Sequence record: OR352946.1
Strand: one strand, 5' to 3'
DNA length: 64,000 nt
DNA from: Escherichia phage AV116
Within the stretch, counting starts at the first letter, position 1. Each line of letters starts with the position of its first letter. A model generated the notes under the pieces. It saw only the letters and a program-made list of their open reading frames with translations, did no database searches and was not told the DNA's origin. A program made the translations under genes and the position numbers. This document shows positions 7,948-49,130 of the stretch, one piece after another.

Positions 7948-9048
7948 TTACGCTGTGAAGATTTTATCCCACATCGCAACAACTGCATCTCGATTATACT
8001 TCTTCCATACTGCTTCAGCACGTTTAACTCGAGCTTCGTATGTGTCAGTGAATTCTAATACAGCTTTTGTGTAAAGCGCAACTACTTCTTTCTTAGGAGT
8101 AGAGGAATCAATTTCTACACGCACAGTATCTGGGTCGTATTCGAATGTCGCATGAGGATAATCCTTAAAAACTAACTGGATTACAGGGACACCTTTAGAG
8201 ATGGCTTCAATAGAACTATTCTCTACCGTACCTGTGTCAGGACACGTATTAATAAGTGCTTTAGCTGTTTTAAGACGTTCCATGATTTCACTATGTGGAG
8301 CATCAATAATAACAGGATACTTAGCCGGTGGTGCCCATTTACTAGGACAGTATCCTGCACCATTTTCGCCTAGTGCTTTAATCGCTTCAAGAGCAACATC
8401 AGTGCGACGCATTTTAGTGTCATAACGTTGGGCACTAATAATCAAATCAGTTGCTGGGAGAACTTCTGGCTTTTCGGTCAAACAAATAACCGGGTAGTCA
8501 TCATGTTCAAATAATGGATTTTCACGCCAGTAATCATAATCAATGCTATCAGTAAGAGCTGAAGTCATATGGCAATATTTACGTTCAAATTCACGGAATG
8601 CTTTAGTAGGAGCATAGCTCTTACCACCGTATTTGTGGGTAAGAATAGTTTGTTTCCAAATTTCTACAATACCGCGAGATACAGGCTCAAATGGAGTTGC
8701 CATAAAATTTCTATGAACACTGGATAAACCGGCATCTTTAATTGCGTTAACAGTTAGTTTAGTCGGTTCCATAGTAACAACAAAATCGTATTCATGGATG
8801 CCGGCTAGTTCAACAATCTTACGAGCCATAGTATAACTCATACCTAGACTGAATTTAGTCAGATGACCAACAGGATGATGATTAACTTTCCAGTCACCAA
8901 ACGTGTCATTATCAAAGCCGATATAATCAATATCAGCACCGATGGACACAAGATATTTCAACACATTTAAATGTACTGCTTCAAGGCCACCTTGTACACG
9001 GTCAGGATTAAATGGGACTGCACGAGATGGGATAAACATAACTTTCAT
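7948..9048 (-). CDS. GT-B (GT4-like) glycosyltransferase
   Basis: 366 aa; N-terminus MKVMFIPSRAVPFNPDRVQGGLEAVHLNVLKYLVSIGADIDYIG typical of GT4 retaining glycosyltransferases. Confidence 0.55.
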   Translation of the reverse strand: MKVMFIPSRAVPFNPDRVQGGLEAVHLNVLKYLVSIGADIDYIGFDNDTFGDWKVNHHPVGHLTKFSLGMSYTMARKIVELAGIHEYDFVVTMEPTKLTVNAIKDAGLSSVHRNFMATPFEPVSRGIVEIWKQTILTHKYGGKSYAPTKAFREFERKYCHMTSALTDSIDYDYWRENPLFEHDDYPVICLTEKPEVLPATDLIISAQRYDTKMRRTDVALEAIKALGENGAGYCPSKWAPPAKYPVIIDAPHSEIMERLKTAKALINTCPDTGTVENSSIEAISKGVPVIQLVFKDYPHATFEYDPDTVRVEIDSSTPKKEVVALYTKAVLEFTDTYEARVKRAEAVWKKYNRDAVVAMWDKIFTA

Positions 9049-9074
9049 AATTAAGCCTTATTAAAATTAAAATG

Positions 9075-9092
9075 AAGCTCCCGAAGGAGCTT
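9075..9092 (-). terminator. hairpin terminator (UUCG loop) between HNH endonuclease and glycosyltransferase genes
   Basis: Plus aagctccCGAAggagctt; minus followed by cATTTTAATTTT. Confidence 0.4.
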
Positions 9093-9888
9093 AGGACATC
9101 CAACACATTTTATAACCTTTGCAGGTTCTGTTAGGATTATTTAATGCTTTCAATATATTAGAAGACCCTATATCTAAATACTCCCTTAATTCATAAAGAT
9201 AGTTAAAATCAATAGTTTCACCTGTTTTTACACTTGTGATTCTTATAGGCCTTCTTTCATATTTAGATTTATACAACTCTCTAGTCTTAGCTTTAGTTTC
9301 TTCTGACCTAGGAGTGTATGGTTTAAATCCTTTTGTTTTAAATGTTTCCATTCTTGATTTAGTTATTTTATCCTGGTGTTCTTTTGTTTTTACAGGTGCT
9401 TTTCGCCCATTCTCCCAAGATAACTTGTTGGCCTGTATTATTTTATCTATTGCTTCTTGCGTATGAGTTTTACCATAAAATGGATTTAATTCGCCTATAC
9501 GTTGTGAAGCAATATGTGACATTAATTCTCTTGTTGCTTTAGTATGTTTTTTACCTTTAAATGGATTGCCATTTTTAGCAATCCATTCTTTCATAAATCT
9601 AGAGTGCTCTTTAGAGAATTCTTGTTTAAGCCAATCATAATCTCTAGAATTTCTAGCTCCCATGTAAAAAGCTCTAATAGCCATAAGCATAGAACGGTTC
9701 TTATGAATTTTATAAAGCAATAAATGGGCGATAAAATGCTCTCTAGGGGTCATTTTAACTAGATTTGATTTAGCATTACTCCCACCCATAGATTTAGGCA
9801 AAATATGGTGAGTTTCAGTATAATTAGGAATAGTGCTGCGGTTTTTAGCCGCAGCGATAAGTTTATCATAAATTTTACGATAATTCAT
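9091..9888 (-). CDS. HNH homing endonuclease with NUMOD3 repeats (MobA-like)
   Basis: HHILPKSMGGSNAKSNLVKMTPREHFIAH HNH motif; NPFYGKTHT and NPFKGKKHT repeats; ATG at 9888 overlaps gene 39 stop (TAATG). Confidence 0.8.
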   Translation of the reverse strand: MNYRKIYDKLIAAAKNRSTIPNYTETHHILPKSMGGSNAKSNLVKMTPREHFIAHLLLYKIHKNRSMLMAIRAFYMGARNSRDYDWLKQEFSKEHSRFMKEWIAKNGNPFKGKKHTKATRELMSHIASQRIGELNPFYGKTHTQEAIDKIIQANKLSWENGRKAPVKTKEHQDKITKSRMETFKTKGFKPYTPRSEETKAKTRELYKSKYERRPIRITSVKTGETIDFNYLYELREYLDIGSSNILKALNNPNRTCKGYKMCWMS

Positions 9889-28372: not shown

Positions 28373-28735
28373 TTAAAAGAATTTAAATTTTTTCTTGGTT
28401 CGTTCATTAAAAGCTTGTTGTACTTGCATTGTAACACATTTTTCAACATGTGGTGCAAGTTCTGCTTTTCTGTCCTGGTCAAGAACTGCAAAGTCCATTA
28501 CGATTTTACCATCAACCCAGTCTAGTTTTGTAATATAGACTATATGATGGGAACCGTCTTCAAGTGTAATCAGAATCTCTTGAATGACATTTTCCATTGC
28601 TGAACGGATAATTTTAAGAGATTCATTAAACACTCGTTCTTTGCGAATGTCCTCCCCTTCCGAAGAAGGGGATTCATCAACGATTTCTAGATTTAAATCA
28701 TCGAGATTATTCATCGAAATCTTCCATTTCGTCAA
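28373..28735 (-). CDS. 40: gp40-like protein (head vertex assembly chaperone position)
   Basis: 120-aa ORF between 41 and uvsX as in T4. Confidence 0.5.
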   Translation of the reverse strand: MTKWKISMNNLDDLNLEIVDESPSSEGEDIRKERVFNESLKIIRSAMENVIQEILITLEDGSHHIVYITKLDWVDGKIVMDFAVLDQDRKAELAPHVEKCVTMQVQQAFNERTKKKFKFF

Positions 28736-29879
28736 GGTCGTTTTCTATATCTGCTGCAGACGGAGCATCAGAAGTTTTAACCGGAACTTTAGTTGTTGCT
28801 TTGCAATTAATAAGGTCGTTAACAGCGTCATCAACTTCTTTAATAGAAGAGATAGCACCTAGTTTATATTTAGTTTCAATTGCATCTCGGAAAGGTTTGT
28901 GTTTAAACAAAGGTCCCCAGAATTCTACACAATCAGTAGCTTTAGCACGCCATGATTTTTCTTCACGAATCATTTCACCTGTTTCTTCGTCAAGGAATTC
29001 ACGAGCATACCAACCGGCTTTAGGCTTAACTACAAAACCAATTTCAGTTGCCATTTCTAACAAGCCACTGAATGGGTCAATACCGCCATCAAAATTAACC
29101 GTGATCGGGAAAGTAGATTTCTCTTTAACTGTACGAGATTTTTCCGCTTTCAACGTGAAGTCATAACCGGTCAATTCTGTACCTTCTTTAACCTGACGTT
29201 TAGAGATAAAAAATACCGTGTTGGCAGAATAAAGAATACCTGTACCACCGCCCATAATCTCTTTAGGATACAATCCGCCGATTTCCATTGCTGTATGGTT
29301 AATTGCAACACATGGAATATCTTTAATAGTCAGATAAGGAGTCACAATGCGGAACAGAGATTTAAGTGCCTTAGCACGAGACATATCACCTACAACTTTC
29401 TCGTTCAACGCATCTTCGGTTTCTTTCTTAGATGCAGTATTACCGATTGAATCGATAAAGATAATAACTTTATCACCGCGTTCAATAGCGTCAAGCTGAT
29501 TAGTCATATCAACTTTAAGTTGTTCGACAGATTGAATCGGAGTATGAACTACACGGTCTAAATCAACACCCATTGAACGAAAATAAGATTCTGAAGCACC
29601 GAATTCTGAGTCATAAAACAAACAGATTGCATCTTTATATTTCTTCATATACGCTGCAACCATAGTTAGTCCAAACAACGTTTTAAAGTGTTTAGAAGGA
29701 GCAGCAAAAATAGTTAAGCCTGATTGCAATCCTGCATTCAGAGCACCACCTAATGCAATATTCAACATCGGAATACGAGTAGGGACTTCATCACGATTAT
29801 TAAACAGCTTAGACTTAGTCAAGTCTGCAGTCATTTTAGAAGTAGAAGCTTTAATCAGACGAGATTTTAAATCAGACAT
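28707..29879 (-). CDS. uvsX: UvsX recombinase (RecA-like)
   Basis: 390 aa; RecA core with acidic C-terminus; T4 UvsX-like. Confidence 0.9.
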   Translation of the reverse strand: MSDLKSRLIKASTSKMTADLTKSKLFNNRDEVPTRIPMLNIALGGALNAGLQSGLTIFAAPSKHFKTLFGLTMVAAYMKKYKDAICLFYDSEFGASESYFRSMGVDLDRVVHTPIQSVEQLKVDMTNQLDAIERGDKVIIFIDSIGNTASKKETEDALNEKVVGDMSRAKALKSLFRIVTPYLTIKDIPCVAINHTAMEIGGLYPKEIMGGGTGILYSANTVFFISKRQVKEGTELTGYDFTLKAEKSRTVKEKSTFPITVNFDGGIDPFSGLLEMATEIGFVVKPKAGWYAREFLDEETGEMIREEKSWRAKATDCVEFWGPLFKHKPFRDAIETKYKLGAISSIKEVDDAVNDLINCKATTKVPVKTSDAPSAADIENDLDEMEDFDE

Positions 29880-29977: not shown

Positions 29978-30526
29978 TTAACGAGCCCATTTGATAATTT
30001 CTGTAATCAAATAATTACGTTCGCTTGCATTAAATCCTATAACTTTGTTAGCACCATCATGATTAAGTAATTGATACGTTTGGATTTTGTTATGAATTGC
30101 AAACTCTTCAAAATGTGAAATGACTGTATTAAAACCGAATGAAGACAAAGTAATAAGGTCGTCTTCAAAACTTTCAGTCATTTCGTTACGTGTTAAAATA
30201 ATTGTGAACACATCATGGTTTTGGCAAAGACGAACATAATCCTGTTCATAAACGTCAAGAACCGAGTCCGCATCTTGTCGAATACGTCCATAAACCCAGT
30301 TACTAATATATCCACGGTCTAATAGATAAATCTTAGTAGGGTCTAAATAATTCAACATTGTTTCGAAACAGCCAACTTCATTTCGAGACTTAACATCGAA
30401 ACGTCCATCAACCGTTCGTTTAGGGAAATCAATCTTTACATATCTTTCACTAATTTCCATTATGTCATTAATGAAAGTTGTTTTACCAGCATTATCTGGG
30501 CCATCTACTAAAATAATTTTAGCCAT
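29978..30526 (-). CDS. P-loop kinase-like protein
   Basis: 182 aa; Walker A ILVDGPDNAGKTT, Walker B IYLLDRG. Confidence 0.5.
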   Translation of the reverse strand: MAKIILVDGPDNAGKTTFINDIMEISERYVKIDFPKRTVDGRFDVKSRNEVGCFETMLNYLDPTKIYLLDRGYISNWVYGRIRQDADSVLDVYEQDYVRLCQNHDVFTIILTRNEMTESFEDDLITLSSFGFNTVISHFEEFAIHNKIQTYQLLNHDGANKVIGFNASERNYLITEIIKWAR

Positions 30527-30527
30527 T

Positions 30528-31427
30528 TTATTCCTCGATTACGACATCTTCGTATTTAGGTATATTATACGGTGAAGAAATTAAAGCGTTAAAGTAGATG
30601 AACTCACCAAGACCTGGATGGAATACTTCTTCAGGATTTTCGAAATATTGAATCTTCGGACGTCCTTTAAGAATTTGATAGTACTCAGTTTTAGTTGGTT
30701 TAAAAATTCGAATCAACGCTTCTTCAGGATACTTATTTCTGTCGAAGCTATTATTTGGATCGGTTATATAAAGCGGTTGGCCTAATTGAATTGCACATTC
30801 AACCACTTGTTCAAAACGATAGCACGGGTCACTAATTCGAAATGGATGAAAAATACCATCTAGATGAATAGGAGCCAAATCACCTACAAGACGCTGCATG
30901 ATGGAAGGACGTATAACTTTCTGCGTTACGATAATCTTATTACCATCTGCACCTGCGTTAACCAGCACTTCTTTTTGACGTTCATTCAACACAGTAGTTT
31001 GAAGTGAACGATTAACCGACAACATATCAGTTTTTAAGAATTCGTCAATATAAAAACGTGGTTTATTAGGGTCTGCAGTGATATTGAAATTGAATTCTAC
31101 ATCAAAAGCGCCGTCATATCCAGTGATATCTGTGATTAGAAAATCACAATCATAATAAGCAATTAATGAATCAACCACAAATTCATTTTCAGACCAGAAA
31201 TATTTACGAGTGTTATACGCGTTATCTTTATACCATAATGGAACAAACTTAAATTCTGGAAAAAGACGTTCGCATTCTTTAATATCAGATGCATTACGTG
31301 GATATGTAATCACATCACCCGGATTAGCACGGTGCAAATGAAGTTGGAAGTTGCCATCCTTAAGGATAGCATACTGTCCAGTTTCATAAGACCGCATACT
31401 CAAGATAGGTACGCGGAAAATAGCCAT
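30528..31427 (-). CDS. hypothetical protein at the beta-glucosyltransferase locus (candidate DNA sugar transferase)
   Basis: 299-aa ORF between uvsX and gene 42 where T4 carries beta-gt; no recognisable GT motif. Confidence 0.4.
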   Translation of the reverse strand: MAIFRVPILSMRSYETGQYAILKDGNFQLHLHRANPGDVITYPRNASDIKECERLFPEFKFVPLWYKDNAYNTRKYFWSENEFVVDSLIAYYDCDFLITDITGYDGAFDVEFNFNITADPNKPRFYIDEFLKTDMLSVNRSLQTTVLNERQKEVLVNAGADGNKIIVTQKVIRPSIMQRLVGDLAPIHLDGIFHPFRISDPCYRFEQVVECAIQLGQPLYITDPNNSFDRNKYPEEALIRIFKPTKTEYYQILKGRPKIQYFENPEEVFHPGLGEFIYFNALISSPYNIPKYEDVVIEE

Positions 31428-32143
31428 TAGTCAAGGAATCCTTTAACATAATCAAAATCACGTTCAAACACATGGGCACTTACCATGGTATGAGTATAAT
31501 CACCAACTTCTACACCACATTCGTTAGCGATATAATGAAGTAATTTTCCTTGGAGATAAAAATCCAACTGCATAACAACAGCACAGTTCTGGGAACGCAT
31601 ATGACAGTGGGTATAAAGCTTACCGTCACGAATATAATAGGTCACTGAGTCAGTACATGGATATTCAAGCGTTTCGTCTGAATCAAGCAAAGCCTGATCA
31701 GAACTTTCTAGAATTTGGAACACAACTCTTCGGGAGTTAGGCTTCTCTTTAAGTTCTTTTAGAAGAGCTGGTAATTGAGCCGCAATGCGAGGACCATAGA
31801 AAGTGTTGAAGTTCGCCGGCAAAACATCTGATTTTGGTTTAGAAATAAATTTAGCGACATTAGGATATGCCTTAAACGCTTCTTCTGCATTGGTACCACC
31901 AGAAATCATAAACTTCCAGAAGTCTTCGGCATATTCATAAGAGATGCGGTTAATACGTGGGTCGGTCATTTTGAATGATGATGGAGTGTCAACAACTACT
32001 GTCATAGACCCAATTTCATTACAACGTCCAATACGAGAATCAGTTACGAATTCCGGGTTTTCTAAAATTTCACGATTGACTGCTTTAAATGCGGTTTGAA
32101 AATCTGCGGCTTTGATATATTTCATTGTGTTATGTTTTCCCAT
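31427..32143 (-). CDS. 42: dCMP hydroxymethylase (gp42, thymidylate-synthase fold)
   Basis: 238 aa; ...RRVVFQILESSDQ...YPCTDSVTYYIRDGKLYTHCHMRSQN... TS-like active-site region. Confidence 0.6.
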   Translation of the reverse strand: MGKHNTMKYIKAADFQTAFKAVNREILENPEFVTDSRIGRCNEIGSMTVVVDTPSSFKMTDPRINRISYEYAEDFWKFMISGGTNAEEAFKAYPNVAKFISKPKSDVLPANFNTFYGPRIAAQLPALLKELKEKPNSRRVVFQILESSDQALLDSDETLEYPCTDSVTYYIRDGKLYTHCHMRSQNCAVVMQLDFYLQGKLLHYIANECGVEVGDYTHTMVSAHVFERDFDYVKGFLD

Positions 32144-32162
32144 GTTTACCTCAATACAATTT

Positions 32163-32188
32163 ATTATATACTCAATTCGTAAAGCTTA
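32163..32188 (-). promoter_or_regulatory. candidate MotA-dependent middle promoter upstream of gene 42
   Basis: Minus AAGCTTTA-N11-TATAAT. Confidence 0.25.
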
Positions 32189-32325
32189 TTTGAATTTCTT
32201 GACAATGTTGATATAACGTAAAGCTTCAGCATCGATACTTCCAAGAACACTATGAAGAAATGCGTCAGCGTAGTATTCCAATTGAACAGGTTTCTTTAAT
32301 CACTTTAGCCGCTTTAGTTTTAAAC

Positions 32326-32345
32326 AGGCCCATCAGGGCCTTTTT
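32326..32345. other. hairpin with plus-side T-run (terminator-like, orientation ambiguous)
   Basis: aggcccATCAgggcct then tttt on plus strand. Confidence 0.3.
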
Positions 32346-32422
32346 AAGAATTTGTTCGTTAGTGTTCAGTTTAATAGTCAAAATCTCTTCGTTAAGTTTA
32401 TAATTAAAAGTTTTTCTAGAAA

Positions 32423-33592
32423 TCATTCCGGGTACCTCAAAGCGTCATCAGAGTTAGTTATATCAATAATAGATATAGAGTTTTCTGCTAACCCGTTTTT
32501 AGATAATTGACGTTTATAATATCTTTCACAATATGTACACGTCGTCCCGCAGATTTCATTAGCACAATCGAAATCTGGATGTCTGAACCACCTTTTTTCT
32601 AAAAAGCCATCTAACAAAGAGGTTTCAATATTTACTGTATGTGAAAACTCAGTTTCGTTTTCAAGAGTGAAAATGGTCTCTAAAGGCTTCCACAGTTCTA
32701 ACAAATTACCTTCAAACTTTTCAGAAGCGTATGCTTCAAGAACTTTCAAAATGTAGTCTGTGCTACCTGTACGTCCTGAAACTTTGAATTGAGTGATACC
32801 AATATCATTATAAAGTTTCAAATCTTGAGGACGAACAAAACGAGTTCTCAACCAGTTAAATGGGTCTGTATCACGAGCTTTAATACAGTGCTGCATAGGA
32901 TATCCGTTTAAGGATTTAGCATCATCAGCGGTAACATCAGTACTATGGAAAATATAGCAAGAGTCACGATAGCTACAATGTGTTGTATACCCTTTACCAG
33001 CATTAGAACAGAACTCATTTACAAGAACTTCAAATATTATATTGTTCTTATTGCAAAACTCTGCTGCACGCTTCAGGAAAGAAACTGAACGGTTCTTATG
33101 AATTCCGCAGCAGACCTTTTTGATATTATACTGGTCATGCAAGTATTTGATTTGAGTTACAGCATCGACATGTAGAATTGTTGAAACTTCAATCTCAATG
33201 TCTTTATTGACTTCACGAACAATTTCCATAACAACAGGGTTAGCGATAGTAATACGCCATACGCCTATTGACCAAAGATACTGAACATAATCCTGAATAG
33301 CTTTCTTCTTCCACTCAACTAGTTCTCTTTTTGAACCAGGATTTATCGTGTTGAGTGTATAGTTAAAGCAAATACCTAATTCGTTACAACGTTTAACGTA
33401 GTCTTCTAACATCTTTTTGTCAACGTCAGGAAGCCTAAAATCAGGTCTGGCTGCTACAAAAGCCATTTCTCTTGTAGAGCCATATACTTCGTTTATCAAG
33501 CTATTAGGATAGGTTTTATTGAGCTCTACGATTTTATCAAGAAGAGCTAAATCAAAATTCGTTCCGATTTTAAAAGTATTCATTTTTTGCAT
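32423..33592 (-). CDS. Cys-rich protein of unknown function (weak peptidase-U32/TIM-barrel-like pattern)
   Basis: 389 aa; NEFCSNAGKGYTTHCSYRDSC and C-terminal CANEICGTTCTYC clusters; part of sugar cassette. Confidence 0.4.
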   Translation of the reverse strand: MQKMNTFKIGTNFDLALLDKIVELNKTYPNSLINEVYGSTREMAFVAARPDFRLPDVDKKMLEDYVKRCNELGICFNYTLNTINPGSKRELVEWKKKAIQDYVQYLWSIGVWRITIANPVVMEIVREVNKDIEIEVSTILHVDAVTQIKYLHDQYNIKKVCCGIHKNRSVSFLKRAAEFCNKNNIIFEVLVNEFCSNAGKGYTTHCSYRDSCYIFHSTDVTADDAKSLNGYPMQHCIKARDTDPFNWLRTRFVRPQDLKLYNDIGITQFKVSGRTGSTDYILKVLEAYASEKFEGNLLELWKPLETIFTLENETEFSHTVNIETSLLDGFLEKRWFRHPDFDCANEICGTTCTYCERYYKRQLSKNGLAENSISIIDITNSDDALRYPE

Positions 33593-33638: not shown

Positions 33639-34040
33639 TTATAGATTCGGTTTATACGATTTAAATGTTTCGAATTCGCCTTTATTCATAAGAGCTTTGA
33701 ATTCGTCAGGACGCATAGCTTTGTCGTCGATAATCCAATCATATACTGGTTTATGTGTTAGCAAATTATGGTACTTCAAGCCAATGTTTGCCAAGTTCTG
33801 AATCAGACTTGGGAGAATGTCAATTGCTATACGTCCAGGACCTACTGACTTCATACCGCGAGCAGTGTAAAGCGTTATGGTATGCCCTGCATCATACAGG
33901 GCATTAATGGCAGACACCATTTCGACGTCTGGTTTGAAGTTCACGTAATCACGATTGTTATTCCACTCTGTTATACAATCATCGACATCAAAACAAAGAT
34001 TAAGCATGTTTTCTACACGGTGCATTAGATTCGTTCCCAT
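33639..34040 (-). CDS. HAD-superfamily phosphatase (small)
   Basis: 133 aa; motif I FDVDDC, motif II TLYTARG, motif IV DWIIDDK. Confidence 0.55.
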   Translation of the reverse strand: MGTNLMHRVENMLNLCFDVDDCITEWNNNRDYVNFKPDVEMVSAINALYDAGHTITLYTARGMKSVGPGRIAIDILPSLIQNLANIGLKYHNLLTHKPVYDWIIDDKAMRPDEFKALMNKGEFETFKSYKPNL

Positions 34041-35710
34041 TGATGAGTGATATCGCCACCGATTGGACGATAGGAAACACCAGTTTCTTTATCAGTTAGT
34101 ACCCATTTACCAGGATTTTTTGTAATCAGAGTAGCCGTTACAGGTTCTGCTACGTCATAACTAATAGAGCCGTCCTGAAGTACACGGCCCATGTTACGTA
34201 ATTGCTTAGTCAGAAGTTCCATACCTTTATAATATGCGGCTACCGCTTTAAGTGGATTATTCTTGAAATAACCACCTAATGCAATCCAGATAATTGCCAC
34301 AGCCAAATGATGATATTCATTAAACGAACTCAGCTTTCCATATTTGTAAACTAATGGATTGATGTTAATAGTCACATTACAAGTTGTTTCATCAATAGTA
34401 AACTGTCCCCAGGTCGGATTAGCATTGAATTCATCATAACCTGAAACAGCATAAAGCACTTTAGCTTCATCATACAATTTTGGCCCGTAAATCTTGGTTT
34501 CACCAAAATATCCACGAGGGTCGATAAATTTGACTTCGCCGTTATCAGTAATCATAGTATTACTGAAGTTCGGGTCACCATGAATAACAGAGTACTGTCC
34601 CTGAGAACGGTTATGATAACGAATAAGGTGTTCTAAAGCTTGTTTCAGCATTGGCTTCAGACGTCCAATCTTAGTGTAGTTCACATGTGTGATTTTACCA
34701 AATGAATCAATCAATGGTTGAATGCTTTCACAACGATCAATAACTTTCGTATAGAATTCTTTAGTGAAATCACGACGAACAGTTTCAGGACTTACAAAAT
34801 AAGTGTCTGTGCTGAATTTCAGTGCATCTAAAATTGCATCAACAATTTGTGGACGAGCAAGACTTGATTTGGATTTAATATATTCAAATGCCGGCTTACC
34901 TTTAATGCGTTCCATTTCAAAGTTATTTTCATTAACAGAAACTAACTGAGGAACTGAATCTGATTTCACTTTCAAATACCACGAAATCTCATCTTTCTGA
35001 AGAGCTCGACCTTGTTCAGTTAATGCGAATTTAGTTACAGTTTCTTCACCAATTTCAACTGCATTAAAACTACGATTAAGTTCACGAACTTCATGAGCCT
35101 TTTCAAGTTTAGGCATATCACCAAGGTCGATGATATTCATAAGCTCTGATTTATTGAATGCGCCGCTGTAAAGGAATTCTACGAAATCACGTCCTTTGCA
35201 GTATTCATGAATTTCCTCATCGGTAGAACCCATGTAGAATTCCCAGTCTTTGAACTGATAAATTCCTACAACATTACCACCTGTTGAACCTACGTTAGTG
35301 ATATTTTCACCGTCGAAATTATACCGACATTCATCACCCTTAACATAGATTGCGTTAACATTCCAAGACCATGAACCAAAATCAGGAATAATATCACACC
35401 AGTTAACAATTACATTATGGCCATCTAAATCTTTGTGTAATTTAGCAAGAGCATAAGCAGAACCATACGCTTCATCAACTGTACGAATAGTCACATTGAA
35501 CCCTTCTTGCTCACAATAAGCTCGAACAGTTTCAGCAAATTTTGAATGAACTACTACGATAATTTCATCTGCGCCAAGGTCAGAATAAATTGTATACAAA
35601 TTGCTCAGAATAGTGTCTTGTTTATAGTTAACAAGCACCTTAGGAATATGATGCGTTATTGGATACAAACGAGTTGCCAGTCCAGCACCAAGAATAACAG
35701 CTTTTTTCAT
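34025..35710 (-). CDS. bifunctional sugar-1-phosphate nucleotidyltransferase / APH-type kinase
   Basis: 561 aa; N-terminal MKKAVILGAGLATRLYPIT (G-x-G-x-x-T-R-L NTase motif); C-terminal HGDPNFSN Brenner motif of aminoglycoside/choline kinase family. Confidence 0.65.
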   Translation of the reverse strand: MKKAVILGAGLATRLYPITHHIPKVLVNYKQDTILSNLYTIYSDLGADEIIVVVHSKFAETVRAYCEQEGFNVTIRTVDEAYGSAYALAKLHKDLDGHNVIVNWCDIIPDFGSWSWNVNAIYVKGDECRYNFDGENITNVGSTGGNVVGIYQFKDWEFYMGSTDEEIHEYCKGRDFVEFLYSGAFNKSELMNIIDLGDMPKLEKAHEVRELNRSFNAVEIGEETVTKFALTEQGRALQKDEISWYLKVKSDSVPQLVSVNENNFEMERIKGKPAFEYIKSKSSLARPQIVDAILDALKFSTDTYFVSPETVRRDFTKEFYTKVIDRCESIQPLIDSFGKITHVNYTKIGRLKPMLKQALEHLIRYHNRSQGQYSVIHGDPNFSNTMITDNGEVKFIDPRGYFGETKIYGPKLYDEAKVLYAVSGYDEFNANPTWGQFTIDETTCNVTININPLVYKYGKLSSFNEYHHLAVAIIWIALGGYFKNNPLKAVAAYYKGMELLTKQLRNMGRVLQDGSISYDVAEPVTATLITKNPGKWVLTDKETGVSYRPIGGDITHQWERI

Positions 35711-35745: not shown

Positions 35746-35895
35746 ACTATTCTAGTTAAAGCATTCATACTTTGCTTGTAGTCCAATCATAATCCATCCA
35801 ATCACAAGTGTTGGAATCATTACCGGAGCCGTTAAGCTCCAGTAGATAGTCATGACAAGCATCAATAGTAAAAGTCCTATTGTTATTGCTTTCAT
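35746..35895 (-). CDS. small membrane protein (49 aa), not in ORF track
   Basis: ATG 35895 overlaps upstream stop (ATGA); MKAITIGLLLLMLVMTIYWSLTAPVMIPTLVIGWIMIG... Confidence 0.35.
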
Positions 35896-36527
35896 TGTTC
35901 GCCTCGTAACATGGCACCTAGTGCACCGCCTGGATGGAACTTAAGGAAATCATTAGAGGTAAATCCACGTTCAGACGAAAGGTTGATAGCAAACGTATCG
36001 ATAAGCGCTAACAACAATGTAGTGGACATAGTCGGAGCTAAAGAGTTCTCGTCAACTTCTACCGCGATACCGGTACAGAACGTATAATCAAAAAGAGCTT
36101 CGTATTCTTGTGGAATGTCAGGGTTACAATGTAACAGAATCTGTTTAACCTGAGGACGAATCATACGAAGATGTTTAGCAACACCTATCATTTCTTCAGT
36201 CTTACCAGAACGACTGATGTGAACTAATACATCATTAGGTGCAATAAATCCTGCGTCACCATGAGAATAATGCCCAGTGTTCAAGTACATACTTGGGATA
36301 CCGAGTGAAGCAAAAGTCTCGGAAGCTTTAGTTGCGATATTAGCGTTCTTACCAACACCTGTAATAATTACCCGGCTTTCATAATTACTAAGTCCAGGGC
36401 GTCGAAGAGTTTCTAGAATAGCGTTATAACGAGCAGGGTTTTGACTAATTACTTTAGCCATAGTGGCAAGAGATGAAGCTTGTTTTACGATTGCGTCAAT
36501 AGCGATAGTGATTGGTGTAGTTTTCAT
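35892..36527 (-). CDS. SIS-domain sugar-phosphate isomerase, KdsD/GutQ-type (D-arabinose-5-phosphate isomerase-like), no CBS domains
   Basis: 211 aa; GVGKNANIATKASETFASLGIPS, HGDAG, ISRSGKT, LAPTMSTT, FHPGGALG align with API SIS domain. Confidence 0.7.
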   Translation of the reverse strand: MKTTPITIAIDAIVKQASSLATMAKVISQNPARYNAILETLRRPGLSNYESRVIITGVGKNANIATKASETFASLGIPSMYLNTGHYSHGDAGFIAPNDVLVHISRSGKTEEMIGVAKHLRMIRPQVKQILLHCNPDIPQEYEALFDYTFCTGIAVEVDENSLAPTMSTTLLLALIDTFAINLSSERGFTSNDFLKFHPGGALGAMLRGEQ

Positions 36528-41334: not shown

Positions 41335-42021
41335 TTAGAAGTCGTGAGTAGAATCGGCTTCCATCGCAATAACATAACTTACTTGAGAGCTTTCAAACTT
41401 GGCTGCAACTTTATCACCAGCTCCCCACAACATTACTTTATAGTTACCTGGCTGGATTTTCATATTAGCCATATTGATTACGAAGTTAAAGTTGTTAGAA
41501 CCATCATAATCGGTAAGAGTCAAAGAATACTTAGGACGAGTTAGTCCTGAATCTTCAACTTTATTATAGCCATTGATAACAATTTTACCATCTTTATTTG
41601 TAATAGCAATTGTATCAATCTGAAGACCACGTGAAACTCGAAGCAATTGTTGAAGGTCTTCAGCTTTAATTTCAGTAATCACAGAAGCTACTGGGAATTG
41701 AATTGGCTTATTAGGAAAAACAATTGTGCTCTTGTCAGCGGCAGGCCAATAAACTGTGGAACGTGTATCTGCAATTTTAATATTGCCATCAGTGTGCATT
41801 GAAATTTCAGCATCATCAGACACTAGACTCAAAATGCTTAAGAAGCTATTCAAATCATAAAGTGCTACGTCAAAATCAATTTCATCAGAGATATTTGCTT
41901 CCGCATAAGTGGTGCCATTAACTGCACGAGTCATAATAAATTTACCTTGACTCAGCAGAATGCCAGAGTTAATAGAAGCGAAGTTTTTCAGAATATTTAC
42001 GGTTTCACGGCTAAGTTTCAT
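41335..42021 (-). CDS. 45: sliding clamp (gp45)
   Basis: 228 aa; MKLSRETVNILKNFASINSGI...ADSTHDF matches T4 gp45. Confidence 0.9.
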   Translation of the reverse strand: MKLSRETVNILKNFASINSGILLSQGKFIMTRAVNGTTYAEANISDEIDFDVALYDLNSFLSILSLVSDDAEISMHTDGNIKIADTRSTVYWPAADKSTIVFPNKPIQFPVASVITEIKAEDLQQLLRVSRGLQIDTIAITNKDGKIVINGYNKVEDSGLTRPKYSLTLTDYDGSNNFNFVINMANMKIQPGNYKVMLWGAGDKVAAKFESSQVSYVIAMEADSTHDF

Positions 42022-42917
42022 TTAGGTTTCCTATTAGCATAATAATTTGTCCAAGTCCGGATAGCACCTTGGTATGATTCATCATTAAAACCATGCTGAA
42101 TTGCATGTTTTCTAAATGTAATATAACTTGGTTTTCCTAAAGCAATCCACAATTCCTTTAATTTTTGTTCATGAAATATCCATGTACCTCTAGCTTTAGA
42201 TTTTCTGAATTTATCCTTAAATTCTTTGGTTGCATTTCTTTTCGAAGCTGCGATAGAGGCCTTTGCTCTATTTTCAGGTTTAGACCAATACAATGTTTTA
42301 GATATTTTTATTTTATCTTTAACATTAGGAGAATTCATTATATCTTTAAATTTTAAAGCAAAATCTCTATCGTTAAACATTTTTTTAGAACGAATAGAAA
42401 CTTTCTCTCTTCGTTCTTTGGTCCAATATGTTTTTTGAAATTCTCTAATTGCGTTTAAATGATTCTCCGACAATTTGCAATTTTTTCTAACACCGACGTA
42501 ATCTTCGTTTATTTCGTTTTTAGAAAGTTTTACTATTTTGCCTGTTTTTAAATTTTTATACGGTGCATATCCTTTAGCTGATATTCTAGACTTCTCGTTA
42601 GCATAAGCCTTATTAAAATATTTTTCATTTGAAACGGCTTTAACATTGAGTTGGAATAGTCTTTCTATTCTTCTAGGGTCTAATGTGGTTTCGCCTAAAA
42701 TTTTTACAGAATATTCGCCTTGGTCTATTAATCTGTTATATAAAGGAGAATACGAGGAATTAACACTACCGGTATATATTTTACCGGTAGAATCTTCAAT
42801 AATATCCTTTCCATTAAAATGACACGAAACTTTAGAACCTATATAATAACACGGGTATTCATTTTTAATCTCACGATTATAAAAGGTTATAAGATATATT
42901 AAATTCATAATTATCAA
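42018..42917 (-). CDS. GIY-YIG homing endonuclease (Seg-like)
   Basis: LIYLITFYNREIKNEYPCYYIGSKV; basic C-terminal DNA-binding region; AT-rich. Confidence 0.65.
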   Translation of the reverse strand: MIIMNLIYLITFYNREIKNEYPCYYIGSKVSCHFNGKDIIEDSTGKIYTGSVNSSYSPLYNRLIDQGEYSVKILGETTLDPRRIERLFQLNVKAVSNEKYFNKAYANEKSRISAKGYAPYKNLKTGKIVKLSKNEINEDYVGVRKNCKLSENHLNAIREFQKTYWTKERREKVSIRSKKMFNDRDFALKFKDIMNSPNVKDKIKISKTLYWSKPENRAKASIAASKRNATKEFKDKFRKSKARGTWIFHEQKLKELWIALGKPSYITFRKHAIQHGFNDESYQGAIRTWTNYYANRKPK

Positions 42918-43330
42918 GCAACAACCATCTGCTTTTTAATAGCTTCAGGCAGTGATTCAATATATTCTGGAATTTTAGAAGCAACAATTTCGCCAGCTGC
43001 AATTAGTTGTTCGTCGGCATCAACACAGTAAAAATCTTCAAGGCGTTCAGAACCGTCTTTATCAAGAACGATTTTAGCACCTGCTTCGATAGAATCTTTA
43101 TAGTGCTTACGCATCAAATGAATCCACATATCAGACACATCGTTATCAATAAAACCATAAATCATAAAACGAGTTTCTTGTGGCAAAGATTGGAGTTTTT
43201 TAGCACTTGCGTCATCACAATGCAGGACCCATGCTTTACGAACACGATTATGGTTATGTGGGTTAGCGTCAGTACGGATAGAAGTAACTTTCAGATCAGC
43301 AGCAGTGAAACCTTTAGCAGTAGTAAACAT
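42914..43330 (-). CDS. rpbA: RpbA-like protein (RNA polymerase binding protein position)
   Basis: 138-aa ORF between 45 and 46; synteny only. Confidence 0.4.
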   Translation of the reverse strand: MFTTAKGFTAADLKVTSIRTDANPHNHNRVRKAWVLHCDDASAKKLQSLPQETRFMIYGFIDNDVSDMWIHLMRKHYKDSIEAGAKIVLDKDGSERLEDFYCVDADEQLIAAGEIVASKIPEYIESLPEAIKKQMVVA

Positions 43331-45525: not shown

Positions 45526-45754
45526 TACACGCTTCAGCCATTTTAAGAATAGAGCCAGGAGTATCGTTGTCCATTATATTAAAGCTAAATTCAATAGCCC
45601 AGTCGGTGCAGACATGAACTGCTTTAACTTCATTGCCTTCAACGCGTAATGGCTCAATCCAATACTTGATAGTGTTCTCGAATCCATCGTCATCTTTAAC
45701 GTCCATTTCAACTTCAAGCCTGAGTCCAGCATTGTTAAATTCATCTAAAGTCAT
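45497..45754 (-). CDS. hypothetical protein (46.2 position)
   Basis: 85-aa ORF. Confidence 0.45.
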   Translation of the reverse strand: MTLDEFNNAGLRLEVEMDVKDDDGFENTIKYWIEPLRVEGNEVKAVHVCTDWAIEFSFNIMDNDTPGSILKMAEACIEDAYNDED

Positions 45755-46773
45755 TGTGTTGCCTCAATATAAAGTTCGTTGGAATATTTGACCAGCGCTT
45801 CTCTGTCTTCATCTGAGATATCTGGAATCGCGTCAATATATTCTTTAATGATATCTTGAAGTGATTTAATCTCGATTTCCTGGTCGTCATCAGATTCAAC
45901 ACTGTTATCAACTTTAGAAACCATACGAAGAGAGTGAACTACTTTTTCAAGTTCAGATTCAAACTTAGTCAACTCTGAATCAATTTCTGATACTATAACA
46001 CGTACGGCTAGATTAGTATAATCAGAATAATTGATTTTGCCTTTAAATGGATAAGTGATTCGTCGATGCCATGTTGTTTCATTAGGAATAAATTCCATAC
46101 GTTCAACATCAGTGTCAAATACCCAGAATCCGCGCGGGTCGTTCTCATCACCTGCAGTAAGGGTCCATGGTGTCCCAATATATTTGACGTTAGCAGCTTC
46201 AGAGATTGTGTGGAAGTGGCCGGACCAGACTTGTTTATAGGTCTTTAAGAAATCAGGTTCAAGCCCATGAGACTTCATTCCTTTATAGAAATAGAAGCCA
46301 TTTAATTCCCAGTGCCCAACACAATACGCTGCAGAAGAAGTCTTGATGTGCTCTAAGATTTCACCTGTATTTTCTTCACACATCCATGGAATCAAATCAA
46401 TCAAGCACCCATCAAAATCTACTGTAGTTGGCTTATCATAAATTATTACGTTTTTACGATGGCTCAATAATTCTTGAACAGTGTTAGGATATAAGGTTGT
46501 TTTATAAAAGAGATCATGATTCCCAAGTATTGTATGGACTGTTATACCAGCGGCTTCCACCAAATCAAACATTTCACGCGTGAATTCCATACAACGTTGT
46601 GTGGTGTGGGCTCTGACATCAAATGTATCACCATATTGAATCCATGTTGTTATTCCATTTGCGACGGAATAGTCGATCATTTGTCTGAAACCGTCACGTT
46701 GTATAGCTTGAATCCAATCGTCGTCTTTTTTGACGCCTAGATGCAAATCGCCTATATTAAGTATTTTCATCAC
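45751..46773 (-). CDS. 47: recombination endonuclease subunit gp47 (Mre11/SbcD-like)
   Basis: 340 aa; phosphoesterase motifs GDLHLG, GNHD. Confidence 0.9.
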   Translation of the reverse strand: MMKILNIGDLHLGVKKDDDWIQAIQRDGFRQMIDYSVANGITTWIQYGDTFDVRAHTTQRCMEFTREMFDLVEAAGITVHTILGNHDLFYKTTLYPNTVQELLSHRKNVIIYDKPTTVDFDGCLIDLIPWMCEENTGEILEHIKTSSAAYCVGHWELNGFYFYKGMKSHGLEPDFLKTYKQVWSGHFHTISEAANVKYIGTPWTLTAGDENDPRGFWVFDTDVERMEFIPNETTWHRRITYPFKGKINYSDYTNLAVRVIVSEIDSELTKFESELEKVVHSLRMVSKVDNSVESDDDQEIEIKSLQDIIKEYIDAIPDISDEDREALVKYSNELYIEATQ

Positions 46774-47573
46774 ATACCTTTAAATTTGGAGTAAATTATA
46801 TTGTGGTACGATATATCAGGAAACCCTTTATCGACCGCAATTTTTCTAAACTTATTAGGACTTATTTTACCACACTCCATCCATAATGCAAACAACTCGT
46901 CAAAATGCTCATATGCTGGACCTCGACGAGCTTTTGACACAGCAGCACTTATGCGAGCCTTTTTCTCAGAATCAAGGTTTTTAAGAGAATTACTTATTTT
47001 ATTTTTTTGCTCTTCTGAATTGAAGGTGCCTTTTTCCCAGCCTAAAGGTTGGCTTCCTTCATGGAACATTTTTCTTGAAGTTCCATTGGTATACCATATT
47101 TTACCTTTATTGTGCCCTGATGCTTTATATTTTGGTGAGCGTCCTTTTATAAATCCTTCAGGTATAGTAGGAGCAAATGTTTGTTCAAGGGTTTCTGGGT
47201 TATACGAATGTATGTTATTTTTGGCGTTATGAGACCCATATAATGGGTGATTTTTACCAGAAACATCACGCCCAAAGAAACCAGTTGGTGATGCCAAAGA
47301 CATATTCATATACAAAGGATTTTTATGAGCTTGAACTCTAATTTGATAGTCCTTTTCCACCTTTAAAGCTTCTTCTCGTGTTGGATGTTCGCTCAAAATA
47401 CAAGAATCAAACAACGTAGGATTTTCTAAAAGTTCTTTGTTATAAATTTTACGATAGGCTTTAGATAGAATAGTACCATGATACCCGTTTAAATGTTTTT
47501 CTAAGCTAGTCGAACCTATGTAAAAAGGTGGTAGCTTATCTCCAGAATAAATTGTCAAATAGACTATAAACAT
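46770..47573 (-). CDS. GIY-YIG homing endonuclease with NUMOD3 repeats (Seg-like)
   Basis: 267 aa from ATG 47573 (MFIVYLTIYSGDKLPPFYIGSTS...); paralog of 11704..12387. Confidence 0.8.
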   Translation of the reverse strand: MFIVYLTIYSGDKLPPFYIGSTSLEKHLNGYHGTILSKAYRKIYNKELLENPTLFDSCILSEHPTREEALKVEKDYQIRVQAHKNPLYMNMSLASPTGFFGRDVSGKNHPLYGSHNAKNNIHSYNPETLEQTFAPTIPEGFIKGRSPKYKASGHNKGKIWYTNGTSRKMFHEGSQPLGWEKGTFNSEEQKNKISNSLKNLDSEKKARISAAVSKARRGPAYEHFDELFALWMECGKISPNKFRKIAVDKGFPDISYHNIIYSKFKGM

Positions 47574-47597
47574 ATATTTCTCCTTTGATTTAAGGAG

Positions 47598-47627
47598 ATT
47601 ATAACACGCCTTTAATGAAGCGTAAAC
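47598..47627 (-). promoter_or_regulatory. early promoter (GTTTAC-N18-TATAAT) for the Seg-like gene
   Basis: Minus GTTTACgcttcattaaaggcgtgtTATAAT then AAGGAGAA RBS. Confidence 0.5.
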
Positions 47628-47655
47628 AAAAAAAGGAAGCACTAGGCTTCCTTTT
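47628..47655 (-). terminator. rho-independent terminator (hairpin then T8)
   Basis: Plus aaaaaaaggaagcACTAGgcttcctttt. Confidence 0.6.
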
Positions 47656-48218: not shown

Positions 48219-48428
48219 TTATCTCATTAAATTAAAATAAAAACGTCCGTCCTCTTCAATACAGAACTCATACTCAACCGGAGTCCCATTTATCGAAAAT
48301 AACACGTCATGTGGGTTCAAAGGGTCGATGTCAAAATTAATTTTAAATTCACGACCCAACAGTTTTACCAAATAAGGGATTGCTTCGTCAAAAGGTTCTT
48401 CTAAGTAGTTAGAGATGTCAATTGTCAT
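48219..48428 (-). CDS. hypothetical protein
   Basis: About 69 aa from internal ATG; short overlap with gene 55 end. Confidence 0.4.
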
Positions 48429-48975
48429 CCTCATATAAAAAATCCAAACTAGGCGAATCGCTAACAACTTCCTTCTTTTCAGCCCCAGGAGCTTTATAAG
48501 CGGATTCTTCATAATGCGTCATTTTATCGTAGATGTCTTGAATAAACGTTTCATCTACCAACGCTACCATATCATCGTCATGACTGTCGTAGACATTATG
48601 AACGAAGTAACTATATTTCTTTGCAACTTCCTTACGTTCTTTTTTGATACGTTGGACAAAAGCATTAAAACAAGCTCGAGTTATGTATGCATGTGGGTTA
48701 TTGTACTTAGTTTCGTCGAAATTATGAAGTCCCTTAATAGAGGCTTCAATCCCATCTGCAATCATCTCCTGCTTCCAAGACTGGGTATATCCTGAAAAGT
48801 TGAAACGTTTGGACAGGCCTTCGGCGATAAGCATAATTGCTAAACCGATGGTATCATTCTGACGAATAATTTTGTTTGGGTCTTTATTATTTAAGAGCTC
48901 CTTTTTCCACTCGATTATAGCGGCGAGAAGCTCTTTATTATTCACATAGTTATTTTTAGGTTTTTGTTCAGTCAT
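48418..48975 (-). CDS. 55: late-transcription sigma factor gp55
   Basis: 185 aa from ATG 48975 ([24 protein letters not shown]...[12 protein letters not shown]); T4 gp55 pattern. Confidence 0.85.
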
Positions 48976-49130
48976 AAGTACCTCTTGGCTCAATTCATAG
49001 GTCTATTATATCATAATATTTAGAGACCTATCTTAAAGCACGAGATACTATAAAAGATACATAACTTTTATAAAGTTGTCGACTTAAAATTCACCAATCT
49101 TTTCTTCAGTTATACTGATTCGAGTTAATT

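Follow-up and report, generated by a model that had tools for sequence, protein, structure and literature searches.

In T-even-type phages, sugar-decorated cytosines are a shield against CRISPR-Cas, restriction enzymes and DNA glycosylases (PMC13216743), and they also influence the engineering and sequencing of these phages. Arabinosyl-5-hydroxycytosine has been identified in virion DNA of RB69 by LC-MS and NMR and of Mosigvirus NP by HPLC/MS, the sugar being ether-linked straight to the C5 oxygen of 5-hydroxycytosine (PMC13326640, PMC13390438). RB69 DNA carries beta-D-Araf-(1-3)-alpha-D-Araf-O5-dC; 5hodCMP is made by RB69 gp48 (PMC13326640), and UDP-arabinofuranose by a bifunctional enzyme of the AfhE / RB69 gp52:53 type (PMC13326640, PMC6024577).

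RB69 gp46:47 and gp79 of Acinetobacter phage DLP3 have been named, by prediction, '(alpha-)arabinosyltransferase 1', and RB69 gp45 'nucleotide kinase' (Lee et al., NAR 2026, PMC13326640). [quoted passage not shown] TH1_063 of Shewanella phage Thanatos (300 aa), which adjoins the ThyA homologue TH1_062 and is a 47.5% identical orthologue of the AV116 protein described below, is reported to have yielded UDP-xylose in vitro when given UTP and xylose-1-phosphate, and to have left plain DNA, dCMP and dCTP unglycosylated (PMC12838424); its description there as a UDP-xylose pyrophosphorylase agrees neither with the fold nor with the role of transferase proposed both here and in PMC13326640. No biochemical proof of the activity of this protein family was found in the accessible literature.

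The AV116 locus and its modified base

The window, a stretch of 64,000 nucleotides from Escherichia phage AV116 (OR352946.1), belongs to a Mosigvirus (RB69 group), and the region is 98-99% identical at the nucleotide level to many Mosigvirus genomes. The earlier note rightly observed that the slot of T4 beta-gt, between uvsX and a supposed gene 42, is filled here by two unrelated ORFs of 182 and 299 aa. The features discussed are:

7948..9048, minus strand: 366-aa second GT-B transferase (RB69 ORF003c, Bas46 Aat, HY126 glycosyltransferase; PDB 9iqz/9ir0, E 1e-241)
28707..29879: uvsX, flanking the 182-aa/299-aa ORF pair, with the ThyA/gp42-like ORF on the other side
29978..30526, minus strand: 182-aa ORF, thymidylate-kinase-like P-loop kinase (orthologue of RB69 gp45 and DLP3 gp78)
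30528..31427, minus strand: 299-aa ORF, predicted GT-B glycosyltransferase ('GT299'; orthologue of RB69 gp46:47, DLP3 gp79 and Thanatos TH1_063)
31427..32143, minus strand: 238-aa ThyA-family protein, predicted dCMP 5-hydroxylase (5hodCMP synthase; PDB 9iqc/9ir2 match)
32423..33592, minus strand: 389-aa peptidase-U32-family protein (RB69 gp50; Pfam PF01136, E 7e-11)
33639..34040, minus strand: 133-aa HAD phosphatase (AfhF / RB69 gp51 type; NCBIfam TIGR01689, E 4e-13, below the curated cut-off)
34025..35710, minus strand: 561-aa sugar-1-phosphate nucleotidyltransferase and kinase (AfhE / RB69 gp52:53 type; Pfam NTP_transferase, N-terminal)
35892..36527, minus strand: 211-aa arabinose-5-phosphate isomerase (KdsD/KpsF type, RB69 gp55; Pfam SIS, PHROG 5670)
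46770..47642, minus strand: 290-aa HNH homing endonuclease, in the T4 alpha-gt slot (PHROG 10820, E 1e-75)

The 299-aa and 182-aa proteins are orthologous to RB69 gp46:47 and gp45 in conserved order, which was checked in NRG-P0074. ORF046c/047c of RB69 (AY303349), which adjoins ORF048c, matches the 299-aa protein at 99.3%; the gene is split by a sequencing error in the RB69 GenBank record, whereas AV116 has a single intact ORF, and there is no substantive difference between the AV116 protein and RB69 gp46:47 or DLP3 gp79. The ThyA-like, 299-aa and 182-aa genes are joined by a stop/start overlap (TAATG) and a 1-nt gap (TAAAATG) and would form a translationally coupled cassette of hydroxylase, transferase and kinase, in which the two ORFs come second and third. 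This cassette probably supplies the core enzymes of the pathway that gives RB69-like phages their arabinosyl-5-hydroxycytosine DNA, and thus of the arabinose version of the cytosine-sugar defence. The assignment of the locus is already published for the RB69 orthologues, so that the guess of the earlier note, although largely right, is no longer new, and the finding mainly confirms that a reading of raw sequence can recover the locus. What is added here is the conservation of the gene triad in 44 of 44 evaluable related loci, the gene fusions in both orders and the transferase pattern of phage LC53. The useful questions concern the timing and substrate of the first sugar and the role of the tightly coupled, sometimes fused thymidylate-kinase-like enzyme, of which no discussion was found in the accessible literature.

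The ThyA-like neighbour belongs to a different branch of the thymidylate synthase family from T4 gp42, to which it is 25% identical. It matches PDB 9iqc/9ir2 over all 238 residues (E 8e-161) and is near-identical to the HY126 enzyme, a crystallised orthologue described as a flavin-dependent dCMP 5-hydroxylase. In the numbering of E. coli ThyA, its RSQN...QLD motif amounts to D169N and N177D, the aligned segments reading RSCD and PFN in the E. coli enzyme and RSND in T4 gp42; D169N (and N177D) is the signature defined for 5-hydroxylase homologues of ThyA (PMC13326640). With the neighbour thus predicted to be a dCMP 5-hydroxylase rather than the product of gene 42, the modified base of AV116 would be arabinosyl-5-hydroxycytosine and not the arabinosyl-hmC first suggested, consistent with the direct ether linkage found in RB69 and NP.

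The G+C content is 0.31-0.41 over 26-36 kb of the window, an interval with no composition anomaly that would point to recent acquisition. Between 29700 and 36700, promoter-like matches were fewer than in shuffled sequence, and scanning of the strand that carries the genes showed no terminator separating the members of the cassette; over the whole window, the T4 late-promoter motif TATAAATA is less frequent than expected. Upstream of the ThyA-like gene, a MotA-box/-10-like pair (aGCTTTA ... TATAAT) was spotted by eye and carries no claim.

The 299-aa protein and the T4 glucosyltransferases

The T4 beta- and alpha-glucosyltransferases (CAZy families GT63 and GT72) have in common with the 299-aa protein a GT-B fold and, given its proposed role, the use of a UDP-sugar to glycosylate a C5-substituted cytosine; beta-gt also has the same genome neighbourhood. 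They differ in acceptor (5-hydroxymethyl for the T4 enzymes, 5-hydroxyl as proposed for the 299-aa protein), in sugar (glucose versus, as proposed, arabinofuranose) and in length (351 and 400 aa versus 299 aa), and detectable sequence similarity is absent: tblastn of both T4 proteins against the whole window gave only chance matches (E above 1), and hhalign of the 299-aa family profile with T4 alpha-GT or beta-GT gave a probability below 1%. Alpha-gt is likewise missing between genes 47 (45751..46773) and 55 (48418..48993), as the earlier note had stated, the interval being occupied by the HNH endonuclease and a 107-aa ORF without assigned function. The possibility raised there of a beta-gt elsewhere found no support from tblastn of the window, and none is reported in the RB69 genome (PMC13326640).

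The 299-aa protein matches no family in Pfam (E up to 1) or NCBIfam (E up to 0.01) and no sequence in the PDB, whether by single-sequence or 56-sequence profile search; at the level of sequence, the remark that it lacks a recognisable glycosyltransferase motif therefore holds. CAZy GT4 sequence profiles (PF00534, PF13439, PF13692 or similar) also failed to match it, and profile comparison of its family with the 366-aa transferase of the window detected no similarity. The fold check that the earlier note had called for gave a transferase fold: two Rossmann-like beta/alpha/beta domains with an inter-domain cleft, similar to solved GT-B enzymes, with Foldseek supporting the GT-B superfamily and ranking UDP-GlcNAc 2-epimerases first by E-value. 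The protein is thus predicted to be a glycosyltransferase of the GT-B superfamily, recognisable by fold alone. It can be likened to the GT4-type retaining GT-B enzymes sucrose-phosphate synthase (6kih), BshA (6n1x), PimA (2gej) and MshA (3c4q), but is only 7-15% identical to them and, unlike them, has no match to Pfam Glycos_transf_1 or Glyco_trans_4. On inspection of the sequences, R197, K246, H270, P271 and G272 are invariant in the family, as are R12, K23, R33 and R74, and E275 is conserved in the consensus; a clear E-x7-E is absent, the segment H270-P-G-x-x-E275 having no second acidic residue 8 positions on.

In 56 diverse members of the family, 32 positions never vary; it comprises 138 homologue clusters in a large protein collection and is conserved in 348 phage records; judged from sequence, both the 299-aa and the 182-aa ORFs are real genes. 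A scan of one genome per species for 185,579 bacterial species yielded a single match, on a phage-sized contig of 167 kb, and the family appears, within the reach of such a pattern-based scan, to be phage-restricted. LC53 and Thanatos are among the 348 records. LC53, for which a single arabinose is reported, has a 299-aa-type transferase but lacks the 366-aa one, and Thanatos is described as mono-arabinosylated; RB69 and Bas46, with two arabinoses, and DLP3, with three, are all from groups carrying the 366-aa-type transferase. Members of the 299-aa family are acidic, with a median pI of 5.1 and a net charge of -11, more so than DNA-acting transferases (pI 6.1-9.05, net charge -5 to +6). Of the proposal in the earlier note that the protein is a novel arabinosyl-hmC transferase, the transferase part is supported by the fold, but the acceptor would be 5-hydroxycytosine and the RB69 and DLP3 orthologues have already been named; we propose the protein as a candidate base-proximal (first) arabinofuranosyltransferase for 5-hydroxycytosine.

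The 182-aa kinase and the order of steps

Synteny was compared in 46 IMG/VR loci with a transferase at least 33% identical, 44 of which were evaluable for the ThyA-like gene and the kinase. Both genes were present in 44 of 44, the kinase directly downstream of the transferase in 33. An AfhE-like UDP-arabinose gene was found in only 30 of the 46 loci, and the other 16 keep the transferase without any detectable arabinose-activation gene; the kinase therefore tracks the base/transferase side of the pathway and not sugar activation. The triad without arabinose-supply genes, seen in many uncultured phages, looks like a portable cassette for placing other sugars on 5-hydroxycytosine. Natural fusions exist in both domain orders (at least seven transferase-kinase clusters and one kinase-transferase cluster), and their kinase part proved homologous to the 182-aa family (hhalign 95%, E 2.6e-8) by profile-profile comparison, which was used because an HMM built from close homologues is too narrow for fused or distant kinases. 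Fusions of a KdsC-like phosphatase to the transferase also occur; among five fusion-gene contigs fetched (1.7-3.2 kb), context was informative only in L067, where the gene of a phosphatase-transferase fusion is immediately preceded by a thymidylate-kinase-like ORF.

The 182-aa protein has the P-loop GPDNAGKT and matches PHROG 761 'thymidylate kinase' (E 2e-45), which is a phage-cluster label only; with NCBIfam TIGR00041 it reaches 16 bits, the cut-off being 83, Pfam PF02223 is not reported for it, and it falls outside curated thymidylate-kinase membership. Its fold is that of NMP kinases, its best structural matches are all dTMP kinases, and the P-loop (G9, G14, K15, T16) and a DR-x3-S-x3-Y motif are invariant across its family, the P-loop and DR motif being also those of thymidylate kinase and of the T4 gp1 dNMP kinase. 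From its context we propose that it is a kinase for modified dCMP rather than dTMP, and it would in this respect serve a phage-specific modified pyrimidine nucleotide as T4 gp1 does. Unlike thymidylate kinases, it is coupled genetically, and at times fused, to a glycosyltransferase; we know of no description of such coupling for a thymidylate kinase. The idea that it activates the base hydroxyl on DNA, modelled on the 5-hmdU DNA kinases, was rejected: the ether link keeps the bridging oxygen, and the hydroxyl is therefore the nucleophile and not the leaving group.

The pathway that we favour, with moderate confidence, would have four steps. The ThyA-like enzyme would convert dCMP to 5-hydroxy-dCMP, as has been shown for its orthologues, and the 182-aa kinase would phosphorylate the modified dCMP on its way to the triphosphate and polymerisation. 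With UDP-arabinofuranose supplied by the upstream isomerase, kinase/uridylyltransferase and phosphatase genes, the 299-aa GT-B enzyme would, from comparative genomics and the literature, add the first, base-proximal arabinose to the cytosine 5-hydroxyl, most likely after incorporation of the base into DNA, as the T4 glucosyltransferases do. The second arabinose would come, according to the literature, from the separate 366-aa transferase.

Counted against this pathway are the inactivity of DLP3 gp79, the TH1_063 result, the lack of a sequence link to glycosyltransferase families, the epimerases at the head of the Foldseek matches and the acidity of the 299-aa family; moreover, the gp1-type dNMP kinase of RB69 phosphorylates 5hodCMP (PMC13326640), so a second kinase for this substrate looks redundant. 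Alternatively, the 299-aa transferase may arabinosylate 5-hydroxy-dCMP, with the 182-aa kinase phosphorylating arabinosyl-5-hydroxy-dCMP and the polymerase using pre-glycosylated dCTP. Such a pre-replicative order would account for the redundant kinase, which needs another substrate if the gp1 type already takes 5hodCMP; for the fusions in both orders, most simply explained by consecutive steps on one small molecule; for the acidity; and for the failed arabinosylation of 5hoC-DNA in vitro, the mononucleotide having been left as an option by the authors of that work. It also suits the obligate companionship of kinase and transferase in all 44 loci and the nearest structural neighbours, which glycosylate small acceptors, those of sucrose-phosphate synthase and MshA being phosphorylated. 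It would be the first case of DNA-base glycosylation before replication, and the want of a known precedent tells against it, the enzymes of T4, T2 and T6 having DNA as their substrate; for the later arabinoses, addition to DNA has been demonstrated (DLP3 gp76+gp77, RB69 DNA), and plasmid DNA takes up 5hodC without any transferase, so that 5hoC-DNA is a feasible intermediate. The KdsC-like phosphatase fusions imply that fusion may mean a common pathway rather than consecutive steps, and in phages without a gp1-type kinase the 182-aa-type enzyme may simply be the 5hodCMP kinase. We consider the pre-replicative order possible, but rather doubtful.

It is far less probable that the 299-aa protein acts on the sugar donor, as a UDP-pentose pyrophosphorylase like TH1_063 or an enzyme resembling UDP-sugar epimerases. 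The UDP-xylose peak obtained with TH1_063 and the lowest Foldseek E-values, those of UDP-GlcNAc 2-epimerases, speak for such a role, but the nucleotidyltransferase fold differs from GT-B, the cluster already has a nucleotidyltransferase in the 561-aa protein (an activity reported for HY126 AfhE), and the assay described for the Thanatos protein, which was purified from E. coli, was controlled only by omission of the enzyme. In addition, the 299-aa-type protein is kept in the 16 loci without a detectable arabinose-activation gene, and LC53, with its single arabinose, would be left without a homologue of either known transferase family. The 182-aa protein, for its part, might be a non-catalytic or regulatory partner of the transferase, or a kinase for a sugar or for the DNA hydroxyl, rather than the nucleotide kinase of the pathway: DLP3 gp76 and gp77 work only together, so transferase complexes do occur in these phages, fusions to the transferase exist, and the Pfam and NCBIfam thymidylate-kinase matches are below threshold. 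This is unlikely in view of the invariant P-loop and DR-x3-S-x3-Y motif, which argue for catalysis, the uniformly dTMP-kinase structural matches and the presence of the sugar 1-kinase step in the C-terminal domain of the 561-aa protein.

Other pathway genes in the window

The set for UDP-arabinofuranose supply (isomerase, kinase/uridylyltransferase and HAD phosphatase) is complete between 33639 and 36527, with the expected domains. The 211-aa isomerase matches the NCBIfam kpsF/KdsD models (E 1e-30 to 1e-32), and residues 308-409 of the 561-aa protein have weak APH/kinase matches in Pfam. A pathway role is described for the HAD phosphatase of the AfhF / RB69 gp51 type (PMC13326640), TIGR01689 being a capsule biosynthesis phosphatase family.

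The 366-aa transferase at 7948..9048 was overlooked in the earlier note. Its family (HY126 glycosyltransferase/Aat) is distinct from that of the 299-aa protein and is confined to phages of Escherichia/Shigella (Mosigvirus-type) and Acinetobacter, no Serratia or Shewanella record having matched. From the literature it is a chain-extending arabinosyltransferase that adds the second or third sugar, and Bas46 Aat can be deleted (PMC13216743).

The 389-aa protein belongs to the U32 family, as does RlhA, the 5-hydroxycytidine synthase of 23S rRNA (PMC5727448). At four loci (L050, L051, L055 and L053) a U32 gene adjoins or lies near the transferase, and no ThyA homologue was found in the sequence available for them; the 389-aa protein is possibly an oxygen-independent C5 hydroxylase.

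Gene content of the beta-gt slot

The window derives from a Mosigvirus (the RB69 group), one of the T-even-type phages. More than 150 genomes of Escherichia and Shigella phages match the 3.8 kb around the two ORFs in the beta-gt slot at 98-99% identity, AV109 (99.1%) being the closest. As the earlier note stated, this slot is filled by unrelated 182-aa and 299-aa ORFs, spanning exactly the coordinates it gave, and alpha-gt is missing between genes 47 and 55, its place being taken by an HNH-type homing endonuclease and a 107-aa ORF; T4 beta-gt and alpha-gt (from NC_000866) gave only chance matches (E above 1) by tblastn against all 64 kb. The relevant features, including the three homing-endonuclease-like ORFs of the window, are:

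7948..9048: second transferase, 366 aa (PDB 9iqz, E 1e-241)
9091-9903, - strand: MobB-like homing-endonuclease ORF (45% identity to the N-terminus of T4 MobB), between the second transferase and topoisomerase gene 39
28707..29879: uvsX, neighbour on one side of the 182-aa/299-aa pair
29978..30526, - strand: 182-aa ORF, P-loop kinase-like
30528..31427, - strand: 299-aa ORF, transferase candidate
31427..32143: 238-aa ThyA/gp42-like ORF, neighbour on the other side
42018-42917, - strand: homing-endonuclease-like ORF between gene 45 and an rpbA-sized ORF (42914..43330)
46770-47642, - strand: HNH-type homing endonuclease in the alpha-gt slot

The ThyA-like and 299-aa genes share a TAATG stop/start overlap and the 299-aa and 182-aa genes are separated by 1 nt (TAAAATG), so the three genes are almost certainly co-translated as a single unit. 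Upstream on the same strand lie a U32-peptidase-like gene, a small HAD phosphatase, a 561-aa nucleotidyltransferase-plus-kinase and an arabinose-5-phosphate isomerase, followed by the DNA polymerase. The small ORF between the U32 and ThyA-like genes (32144-32426, - strand) encodes 53 aa; a 79-aa CDS is annotated at this position in the related phage NRG-P0074 (L001), and the window may carry a frameshift or premature stop. Public annotation of the module, in NRG-P0074 and other GenBank records, lacks consistency and frequently misleads, with dCMP deaminase as the label of the 561-aa gene, phosphoheptose isomerase as that of the HAD phosphatase, and either dCMP hydroxymethylase or thymidylate synthase as that of the hydroxylase; some records call the 299-aa gene an RNA polymerase binding protein.

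Transferase, hydroxylase and acceptor base

The 299-aa protein lacks a recognisable glycosyltransferase motif, as the earlier note had observed: it belongs to no Pfam or NCBIfam family and matches no PDB sequence, whether as a single sequence or as a 56-sequence profile. Profile-profile alignment detected no similarity to T4 beta-GT, T4 alpha-GT or the 366-aa transferase of the window. An alignment of 56 diverse homologues yielded an AlphaFold2 model of very high confidence (pLDDT 94.7, pTM 0.89), and Foldseek agrees on the GT-B superfamily: UDP-GlcNAc 2-epimerases have its lowest E-values, but GT4 transferases such as MshA and HepE its higher TM-scores. The evidence for a predicted GT-B transferase is thus structural rather than sequence-based. 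The family is small: when 1.84 billion representative proteins were searched exhaustively by HMM, 229 members emerged, and a scan of one prokaryotic genome per species (185,579 species) yielded a single match, on a phage-sized contig.

This reading has been overtaken by publications of 2025-2026. RB69 gp46:47, 99.3% identical to the 299-aa protein and a single ORF split in GenBank through a sequencing error, has been named arabinosyltransferase 1, its first-transferase role being a prediction, with gp3 (ORF003c) as the second transferase and gp45, mentioned in a table only, as a nucleotide kinase (PMC13326640); the Thanatos orthologue TH1_063 was reported instead as a UDP-xylose pyrophosphorylase.

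The ThyA-like protein, called gene 42 in the earlier note, cannot be so named: it is only 25% identical to T4 gp42, matches the crystallized enzyme of phage HY126 from end to end (PDB 9iqc/9ir2, E 8e-161), and has Asn for Asp169 and Asp for Asn177 (E. coli ThyA numbering). The D169N signature marks dCMP 5-hydroxylases, in which bound flavin was found (Lee et al., NAR 2026, PMC13326640); He et al., as cited there, give flavin as the cofactor and O2 as the oxygen source. In RB69-type DNA, arabinofuranose is ether-linked directly to C5 of 5-hydroxycytosine (5hoC), in mono- and di-arabinosyl forms, which supersedes the arabinosyl-hmC of the first report in 2018 (PMC13326640, PMC13390438). The proposal of an arabinosyl-hmC transferase, made from position alone, stands essentially in class and role, and fails in its acceptor chemistry.

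The U32-peptidase-like gene within the modification cluster (32423-33592, - strand) belongs to the family of RlhA, which forms 5-hydroxycytidine in 23S rRNA by means of an Fe-S cluster and prephenate (PMC5727448). Four related loci (among L050, L051, L053, L055 and L060) have a U32 gene adjoining the transferase or in its vicinity, and the sequence fetched for them reveals no hydroxylase of the ThyA-like type; the U32 gene may therefore encode an alternative, oxygen-independent cytosine C5-hydroxylase. RB69 gp50 (U32) was entered only as a "sugar or heterocycle reductase", without the link to RlhA (PMC13326640).

The kinase and the level of the first arabinosylation

The 182-aa protein carries a P-loop (GPDNAGKT) that is invariant in its family, together with a DR-x3-S-x3-Y motif, and falls below the curated thymidylate-kinase models of Pfam and NCBIfam. 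It is a pyrimidine-NMP-kinase-like enzyme rather than a sugar kinase. Among 46 IMG/VR loci with transferase identity of at least 33%, the ThyA-like hydroxylase is present in all 44 evaluable for it (adjoining the transferase in 37) and the kinase in all 44 evaluable for it (directly downstream in 33, elsewhere in the cluster in 11), whereas only 30 of the 46 have a recognisable UDP-arabinose gene. On L035, a metagenomic contig from a distant T4-like phage, positions 8790-11576 encode a flavodoxin-like (PF02525) reductase, hydroxylase, 348-aa transferase and kinase, and the vicinity lacks arabinose-supply genes; this fits a hydroxylase that depends on flavin and is served by a reductase of its own, and a sugar donor of another kind. 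The hexose-using Rhizobium phage RL38J1 has kinase, transferase and hydroxylase listed in the same order. These distributions group the kinase with the base and transferase steps rather than with those that activate the sugar.

Transferase-kinase fusions occur in at least seven protein clusters and a kinase-transferase fusion in one (metagenomic proteins P0252, P0256, P0262, P0268, P0277, P0286, P0239 and P0257; loci L062-L065, with contigs too short to reveal context), the fused kinase domain being homologous to the kinase family of the window (hhalign 95%, E 2.6e-8). In eight further clusters (P0166, P0177, P0178, P0180, P0191, P0195, P0225 and P0250; loci L066 and L067), a KdsC-type HAD phosphatase (best PDB match 2p9j, E 4e-13) is fused to the transferase N-terminus, and in L067 a thymidylate-kinase-like ORF immediately precedes the fusion.

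The best-supported reading, which we consider probable, is a three-step cassette that makes, activates and decorates the base: the hydroxylase would produce 5-hydroxy-dCMP (5hodCMP), the kinase would move the modified dCMP towards the triphosphate, and the 299-aa GT-B enzyme would transfer arabinofuranose from UDP-arabinofuranose (UDP-Araf) to the 5-hydroxyl, after which the 366-aa enzyme would add a second sugar. The role of the transferase is held with more confidence than its acceptor. The main rival, rather unlikely in our estimation, is that 5hodCMP receives the first sugar and that only the glycosylated nucleotide is the substrate of the kinase. A gp1-type kinase already phosphorylates 5hodCMP, making a second kinase look redundant; the transferase/kinase fusions point the same way, as does the acidity of the family (median pI 5.1 versus 6.1-9.05 for DNA-acting transferases), and the DLP3 transferases, each alone, showed no activity towards 5hoC-DNA when given UDP-Araf or UDP-arabinopyranose (data not shown in PMC13326640, whose authors cannot tell mononucleotide-level from DNA-level first arabinosylation). 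Each of these four points nevertheless falls short of being decisive, and the phosphatase fusions show that fusion can mean a shared pathway rather than consecutive steps.

Distribution of the two transferases and the rII region

The 299-aa family is found in 348 phage records, including phages of Klebsiella, Serratia, Yersinia, Proteus and Shewanella, among them LC53, for which a single arabinose was reported, and Thanatos, described as mono-arabinosylated. By contrast, the 211 records with the 366-aa transferase are all of Escherichia/Shigella or Acinetobacter phages, groups whose studied members have two or three arabinoses. This distribution fits addition of the first sugar by the 299-aa enzyme and chain extension by the 366-aa enzyme as predicted roles.

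Compared with its nearest relative AV109, the window is missing 2515 bp: rIIA is lost from approximately codon 259 onwards, rIIB is gone entirely, and the small ORF that follows lacks its start. The loss looks like a classical rII deletion, with a 9-bp overlap (microhomology) at the junction near 6867-6875, and leaves rIIA as a 269-aa stub (6833-7642, - strand).
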